Shown here: one piece after another, positions 38,467 through 40,570 of the stretch | How positions within the stretch are numbered: position 1 is the first letter of the stretch | Layout of the letters: every line of letters begins with the position of its first letter | From: Escherichia phage RB32 | Direction: 5' to 3' (one strand) | Sequence record: NC_008515.1 | Length of the DNA: 64,000 nt | Position numbers and translations under genes: made by a program | The notes under the pieces: generated by a model | What the model saw: only the letters and a program-made list of their open reading frames with translations | Told to the model about the DNA's origin: nothing | Databases searched by the model: none

Positions 38467-39327
38467 TTACACCGCCATCTTTCCTTTAATAGAAGGGTGT
38501 GATTCATAGTTGTTAAGAACAAAATTATGCGGCTTTACGAATTGACTCAACCAAAATACCTGCGATTCTGTGTCCCATTCATCAAATTCATCTGGAAATT
38601 TTAATTGCAATTCGCATAAATCCATAGGTTCACGACGTAAAATTTCTTTACATTGTTCTACGTGATTCATATAGATATGAGTATTACCACCGGAAAATAT
38701 CAAATCTCCCGGAATAAGATTACACATCTTAGCTACAATATGAACTAACGTAGCATATGATGCAATGTTGAATGGCAAGCCCAAGAACACGTCAACACTT
38801 CTTTGATACCACTGTAAATCCAAATAGCCATTACGCACATTAAATTGATAGAACATATGACAAGGCGGTAATGCCATATATTTAAGTTCAGCTGGATTCC
38901 ACGCAGAAACAATTTGTCGCCTATCATTCGGCAGTTTTTTAATACGATCAATAACTTCTACAATTTGGTCTACACCGCCAAAATCACGCCATTGTTTTCC
39001 ATAAATTGGACCAAGTTCACCGCTATGGTATCCTAAATCTTTTGCTTGATTTTCGTAATTTTCATCCCAGACTGTTTTGCCTTGAATTAATGAATCATGC
39101 TGAATTAATCGTAAATCATTGACATTTGTGCTTCCTGATAAAAACCATATTAACTCAGCAATGCAAGCTTTCCAGGCGAGCTTTTTAGTTGTTACTGCAG
39201 GAAAACCTTTGGTTAAATCCCAACGCAATTTAGTACCGAACAAAGCAATTGTTCCTGTGCCTGTTCGGTCATCAGTTTCGTAGCCATTTTCAAAAATGTC
39301 TTTAATTAAATCTTGGTATTGTTTCAT
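38467..39327 (-). CDS. td: Thymidylate synthase
   Basis: 286 aa uninterrupted ORF (no intron); MKQYQDLIKDIFENGYETDDRTGTGTIALFG... and active-site region ALPPCHMFYQF. Confidence 0.95.
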   Translation of the reverse strand: MKQYQDLIKDIFENGYETDDRTGTGTIALFGTKLRWDLTKGFPAVTTKKLAWKACIAELIWFLSGSTNVNDLRLIQHDSLIQGKTVWDENYENQAKDLGYHSGELGPIYGKQWRDFGGVDQIVEVIDRIKKLPNDRRQIVSAWNPAELKYMALPPCHMFYQFNVRNGYLDLQWYQRSVDVFLGLPFNIASYATLVHIVAKMCNLIPGDLIFSGGNTHIYMNHVEQCKEILRREPMDLCELQLKFPDEFDEWDTESQVFWLSQFVKPHNFVLNNYESHPSIKGKMAV

Positions 39328-39372
39328 TTAGTACCTTATATAAATTATAATACATTTTATGAAGCTAAATAA

Positions 39373-39720
39373 TCAATACGGTTTAGCATCAAATTTTCTC
39401 TCAATTTCAGGCGTGAAATATAATTCTTTACCGCGTTTGGAAAAGCGACCAATAATATGATAATTATTCTCATCAAACGTGATATTACCAATATCCATAG
39501 CTTTCAACCAAATATCGATATTTCTATCCAGCTTTATGTCAAAATTCCAATACGGAAAACTATTACCGAAAATACTGCAAGCGGATTCAGTGCAACAACT
39601 GCTATAAATCTTGTCTTTAGGAACTACTAATTGATAGACACCTTTAATAAACTGAGGACCCTGCCATTTTGGTTGTTTCGCGTCTTTTTCTAATAGAATA
39701 GGGTAATAATTAAAGTTCAT
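39373..39720 (-). CDS. Hypothetical protein, 115 aa, inserted between frd and td
   Basis: ORF from the ATG at 39720 (the track start at 39732 is a GTG); Cys cluster SSCCTESACS. Confidence 0.5.
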   Translation of the reverse strand: MNFNYYPILLEKDAKQPKWQGPQFIKGVYQLVVPKDKIYSSCCTESACSIFGNSFPYWNFDIKLDRNIDIWLKAMDIGNITFDENNYHIIGRFSKRGKELYFTPEIERKFDAKPY

Positions 39721-39740
39721 ATTTTCCGGCACGCGTTATT

Positions 39741-40570
<830 letters not shown>

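Follow-up and report, generated by a model that had tools for sequence, protein, structure and literature searches.

The frd-td junction of T-even phages raises a simple question: is the short open reading frame (ORF) that separates these two genes in Escherichia phage RB32 an unusual insertion into a junction that is tight in T4, or a regular part of the locus? We analyzed a stretch of 64,000 nucleotides of the RB32 genome (NC_008515.1; hereafter the window), together with the corresponding loci of related phages.

The 115-codon frame between frd and td

The initial annotation had placed a same-strand ORF of 115 amino acids (aa) between frd, ending at 39741, and td, starting at 39327. This layout was confirmed: the interval measured 413 nt and consisted of a 20-nt spacer, a 348-nt ORF and a 45-nt spacer. 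The features of the junction, all on the minus strand, are as follows.

39741..40325, minus strand: frd (dihydrofolate reductase, DHFR), upstream neighbour
39739..39747, minus strand: left copy of the 9-bp direct repeat TAAATGAAA, across the frd stop codon
39721..39740, minus strand: spacer of 20 nt between frd and the ORF, read from the sequence
39373..39720, minus strand: coding sequence of 115 aa, RB33_230, PHROG 1928 member, from the sequence, GenBank and a hidden Markov model (HMM) match
39328..39372, minus strand: spacer of 45 nt between the ORF and td, read from the sequence
39322..39330, minus strand: right copy of TAAATGAAA, across the td start codon
38467..39327, minus strand: td (thymidylate synthase, TS), intron-less, downstream neighbour

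Over the query region, the window matched Enterobacteria phage RB33 (KM607001) at 100% identity, and in that record GenBank labels the product RB33_230, hypothetical protein. The annotated start is the ATG at 39720, and the coordinates of the 115 codons include the stop; the longest open frame extends to an alternative in-frame start, GTG 39732 (119 aa). The 20-nt spacer contained a weak GGA resembling a Shine-Dalgarno sequence 7-9 nt 5' of the ATG, and the 45-nt spacer contained AAGG, a putative ribosome-binding site of td. A sigma-70-like hexamer pair, TTGATT-18-TATTAT (39376-39347, minus strand), spanned the ORF stop and the 45-nt spacer. In the same segment (39347-39376, minus strand), a MotA-box-like AGCTTCA was located 10 nt upstream of a TATAAT. 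These sigma-70-like and MotA-like elements could constitute a td-proximal promoter that has no counterpart in T4.

A tblastn search with the 115-aa protein matched 583 phage records, showing the ORF to be kept across genera; conservation in relatives had been named beforehand as a test of its reality. At least 90% identity was found in 361 of these records, all Tequatrovirus, including T2, RB14, RB10, RB18, RB68, AR1 and PP01. Identity was below 60% in the other 222, which came from phages of Klebsiella, Salmonella, Citrobacter, Enterobacter, Serratia, Erwinia and other hosts. Nei-Gojobori analysis of diverged copies gave pN values far below pS. The dN/dS ratio was 0.13 at a dS of 1.1 between two uncultured T4-like contigs (L015 and L016), 0.07-0.08 between RB33 and either contig, with dS near saturation; overall, the ratios were 0.07-0.36. 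The suggestion that this frame is open by chance, without being a gene, finds its only support in the absence of any known function, and it is refuted by the protein conservation across genera, these dN/dS ratios and a confident structure model; we regard its likelihood as next to nil. The conservation across genera thus identifies the ORF as a genuine protein-coding gene, one already annotated as hypothetical. It is also not new, being annotated in RB33 and hundreds of genomes and belonging to an existing PHROG.

The PHROG 1928 family and its place after frd

The 115-aa protein matched the PHROG 1928 HMM with an E value of 7.5e-35, residues 4-111 aligning with profile positions 2-125 of 126. 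Paralogues and distant homologues matched the same profile, which represents a family without assigned function. Its examples include RB32ORF229c in RB14 and RB51, gp155 and gp154 of Salmonella phage S16, and gp173 of Mineola. The RB33 ORF resembled them in size, motifs and position after frd, with no essential difference. An HMM search of 1.84 billion representative proteins returned only 50 matches, all of them stand-alone proteins of 95-148 aa except for three long marginal ones. The family is confined to Straboviridae. No Pfam family, NCBIfam family or PDB sequence relative was found for either the single protein or the 51-member profile, and none of the 51 members had a Pfam match.

Alignment of the 51 sequences showed W19, G91, K95 and G97 to be invariant and L9, G27, Y29, F93 and F102 to be nearly so. 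Q16 and R92 were invariant in the closer set, R92 nearly so family-wide, and a C-terminal motif, G91-R92-F93-x-K95-x-G97, was conserved. No Cys, His, Asp, Glu or Asn was invariant. A second type of paralogue carried an insert of about 19 residues (ALVxxGxxPTIxxYKRNP). The initial annotation had drawn attention to a cysteine cluster, SSCCTESACS. The string is present at residues 40-49, but it did not prove to be a conserved or meaningful feature: C42 and C43 differed even in copies of 97-98% identity (SSCF or SSSYC in place of SSCC), and only C48 was common to the relatives of 62-65% identity. To judge by the alignment, the cluster has no significance at the family level. A zinc-binding or Cys-cluster protein was accordingly rejected, since no Cys or His is invariant across the family.

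The family gene was located directly downstream of the DHFR gene in RB33 and in all 13 other examined loci carrying the family. These were Kanagawavirus (L004), Jiaodavirus Mineola (L005), Gelderlandvirus S16 (gp155; L006), Klebsiella phage kv_tblp8 (L007), Winklervirus (L008), Moonvirus NM4.3 (L009), Providencia Gualtarvirus (L011, L012 and L018) and four uncultured T4-like contigs (L013-L016). Within Tequatrovirus, about 360 of about 510 records carried the gene after frd, including T2 and T6. In each of the 11 examined loci from outside Tequatrovirus, the family start codon lay 1-23 nt inside frd. Profile scans of the loci revealed a single copy each in Tequatrovirus, Mineola and the Providencia phages, and two tandem copies in L004, L006-L009, L013, L015 and L016. 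The largest array seen had three tandem copies between frd and td (L014, 2562-3602). RB33 and other Tequatroviruses thus have a single copy with short spacers to frd and td, whereas many genera have two or three overlapping tandem copies. A profile search of the whole window detected the 115-aa ORF as the sole match, without a second copy, and the scans found no copy in the T4, fHoEco02 and Dhakavirus loci.

In Citrobacter phage NM4.3 (L009, 2480-2809), the annotation omits the family gene and has an opposite-strand 41-aa ORF instead; the plus-strand ORF of 109 aa is a clear family member (E 1.9e-29).

Because the same family follows frd in many genera and in most Tequatroviruses, the occupied frd-td junction can be read from these comparisons as the common state, with T4 in a minority that lacks the gene. 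The distribution likewise marks the family as old at the post-frd locus across Straboviridae. A synteny comparison of the junction across T-even genomes, proposed at the outset, therefore went against the tight T4 junction as the norm, with T2 and T6 carrying the ORF. These results mainly serve as a correction: the T4 arrangement is not the reference state of the frd-td junction, and most T4 relatives encode one to three copies of the family.

Junction alleles, the td intron and the direction of change

Junction alleles were surveyed with two queries, the T4 junction and the T4 segment from the 3' end of frd to td exon 2. Three alleles were found in Tequatrovirus: tight, +416/417 bp and +206 bp. 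T4 and a small number of its relatives had the tight ATGA allele. In the T4 genome (NC_000866), the two genes share 4 nt and no sequence separates them, as the initial annotation had stated; it was equally right that T4 has no copy of the 115-aa ORF. The majority allele, +416/417 bp, corresponds to the 115-aa ORF and includes T6, PP01 and RB51. The +206 bp allele, found in about a quarter of Tequatrovirus records, encodes an unrelated 68-aa protein (PHROG 9550). In phage fHoEco02 (L010, 1699-1905), the 68-aa ORF shares ATGA with the end of frd and TAATGA with the beginning of td, so that its start and stop codons overlap the frd stop and the td start, respectively. Some records misname the 68-aa ORF 'flagellar biosynthesis protein'.

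The 115-aa gene is dispensable, being absent from T4 and phages closely related to it, from Dhakavirus and from the roughly one in four Tequatroviruses that have the 68-aa ORF instead. The initial view of an accessory gene acquired at a tight junction holds as far as a dispensable accessory gene is concerned, but the notion of an unusual insertion was mostly wrong, the majority carrying the gene.

We next consider the td intron, the insertion site of which is located about 0.6-0.9 kb downstream of the 115-aa ORF. Intron state and junction allele were tallied in an evenly spaced sample of Tequatrovirus records, comprising 19 intron-bearing and 24 intron-less td genes. The intron-bearing genes were associated with 5 tight, 8 ORF68 and 6 ORF115 junctions, and the intron-less genes with 23 ORF115 junctions and 1 ORF68 junction (ORF115 versus other alleles, Fisher p = 8e-6, ignoring phylogeny). 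The tight junction was found in this sample with intron-bearing td only. Mutual exclusion of the ORF and the td intron was rejected, as FL34, G2540-3, ESCO58, FL23, SCS4 and HP3 have both. Homing of the td intron also converts the exon sequence that flanks it. The association therefore suggests, as a reasonable explanation, that the junction allele may hitch-hike with the intron. In HP3 and C2-3, the td match covered 67% of the T4 query, and the missing length was about the size of I-TevI, which suggests that their td introns have lost the endonuclease ORF.

The 9-bp repeat TAAATGAAA holds the Lys and stop codons of frd and the Met and Lys codons of td, and it occurs 8 times on the minus strand of the window. 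Fusing the two copies, with removal of 417 bp, yields exactly the junction of T4 and Dhakavirus. Read from the sequence, this arrangement is compatible with precise deletion, with an insertion that left both gene ends intact, or with functional constraint alone. One scenario, a refined form of the initial view, is that the ancestor of Tequatrovirus and Dhakavirus had a tight junction, and that the ORF was re-inserted into a Tequatrovirus lineage from another T4-like phage and spread by recombination. Dhakavirus, the nearest sister genus sampled (Frd of WG01 is 78% identical to that of RB33), has a tight junction as in T4, and the T4 junction sequence AAATGAAACAATACCA is common to Dhakavirus WG01 and C6. 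The RB33 ORF is 62-65% identical to copies from one uncultured lineage, exceeding the mere 46% identity of Frd from the same phages; this is the reverse of the other Tevenvirinae genera compared, in which the ORF (31-45% identity) was no better conserved than Frd (45-56%). Tequatrovirus is alone in having spacers (20 and 45 nt) around the gene instead of overlaps, and the unrelated 68-aa ORF at the same site in other Tequatroviruses indicates that the site accepts cassettes. However, retention with repeated loss explains equally well why the family occupies exactly the same position in many genera, and the flanking direct repeat would favor recurrent precise deletion. The reversal of identities could reflect rate differences between proteins, and no known donor sequence is closer than 65%. 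We therefore consider lateral re-acquisition possible, although somewhat doubtful.

Candidate functions of the 115-aa protein

The predicted structure, a confident model, is a small beta-barrel with one helix (beta-beta-beta-beta-alpha-beta-beta-beta). The barrel is loosely OB-fold-like, and its weak structural matches were mostly small OB-fold subunits. Such subunits (the RPA14/RPA32 core, Stn1-Ten1, the OB domains of Teb1, SSB and PriB) are built on a closed five-stranded barrel in which the helix falls between strands 3 and 4; the predicted barrel may be comparable, and conserved surface aromatic and basic residues would be a feature of both. Homology to T4 gp32 was rejected, as profile comparison showed none. 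Literature searches on the frd-td junction and on the locus names yielded no relevant work.

The conserved set consists of aromatic and basic residues and glycines and includes no invariant acidic residue, His or Cys, from which we infer a non-catalytic binding or adaptor protein acting through a conserved aromatic/basic surface. On this reading, the product is no enzyme or nuclease, nor is it a zinc protein. Outside Tequatrovirus the family gene begins within the 3' end of frd, and translation is therefore probably coupled to that of DHFR, from early or middle nucleotide-precursor transcripts. The candidate ligand would be either a nucleic acid or a protein partner, for instance DHFR or the dNTP-synthesising complex that contains DHFR and TS. 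The reading that we prefer is thus of a Straboviridae-restricted gene that follows and is coupled to the DHFR gene, encodes a non-catalytic binding or adaptor protein, and is a dispensable occupant of a junction with three alleles. Taken as a whole, it remains tentative, with a probability of roughly 45%.

Database records offer a different account, in which the protein is, or is the remnant of, a free-standing homing endonuclease. The label 'putative homing endonuclease' appears in the BASEL phage records MZ501066, MZ501089, MZ501046, MZ501106 and MZ501065. Residues 24-36 (FIKGVYQLVVPKD) indeed resemble the N-terminus of I-TevI (MKSGIYQIKNTLN), and the protein shares with the I-TevI/Seg-type GIY-YIG enzymes of T-even phages an N-terminal G-(I/V)-Y-Q-hydrophobic strand and a polymorphic site near the mobile td intron. 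The likeness ends there, since the G-V/I-Y element is not followed by YIG 10-11 residues on, and only G27 and Y29 are conserved in that part. A comparison with I-TevI by hhalign gave a probability of 1% over 13 columns, and no Pfam nuclease or GIY-YIG match was obtained with any of the 51 members, bearing out the initial remark that homing-endonuclease motifs are absent. The catalytic Arg/Glu/Asn set is missing; there is no invariant Glu, Asp or His, and Arg92 is nearly but not fully invariant. The model lacks the alpha/beta GIY-YIG fold, its structural matches included no GIY-YIG, HNH, LAGLIDADG or PD-(D/E)xK nuclease fold, and 115 aa leaves no room for a separate DNA-binding domain. Finally, a mobile gene would not be expected to occupy one fixed position in so many genera. 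A homing endonuclease is thus very improbable. A second label, 'putative glucose-1-phosphate adenylyltransferase' (NC_054937/MN580668, phage pSe_SNUABM_01), was likewise rejected, and both database labels are unsupported.

A stronger competitor is a role in host takeover or counter-defence without any functional link to DHFR, in which case the gene's position would reflect only a conserved order in an early-gene region with many small accessory ORFs. The product is small and bears no enzymatic signature, and it diverges fast and occurs in one to three tandem copies; its presence is patchy among near-identical phages, and its neighbours frd.1-3, nrdA.1/2 and RB33_232 are also small ORFs without assigned function. 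Searches of general libraries (Pfam, NCBIfam, PDB sequences and folds) returned no characterised anti-defence relative, however, and the frd-overlapping start in 11 of 11 loci is a tighter link than is usual for variable accessory genes. We consider this explanation rather unlikely. A bolder version of the DHFR-coupled reading is that PHROG 1928 is an unrecognised part of the dNTP machinery: proteins with a new or highly diverged OB-like fold, acting singly or as hetero-oligomers of tandem paralogues, that would link the dNTP synthetase complex (DHFR/TS) to DNA or gp32. This is improbable. If it were true, the absence of members from the model phage T4 would explain why the family had been overlooked for decades. 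If the coupling to frd reflects function, the family becomes a candidate for a missing partner of the phage dNTP-synthesising complex; as matters stand, it is one more conserved phage gene without assigned function.

The closest parallels within the gp32-frd-td-nrdA early region of T4 are frd.1/DUF5417, frd.2, frd.3, nrdA.1/DUF4326 and nrdA.2, which are likewise short, non-essential, patchy in distribution, without assigned function and co-oriented with nucleotide-metabolism genes. The 115-aa family is unrelated to them in sequence and alone has neither a T4 representative nor a Pfam entry. A second extra ORF compared with T4, RB33_232 (81 aa; 40325-40570, minus strand), belongs to PHROG 3183, to which no function is assigned. 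It occupies the interval between frd.1 and the frd gene, where T4 has only a 71-bp gap, and overlaps the start of frd with its stop codon.
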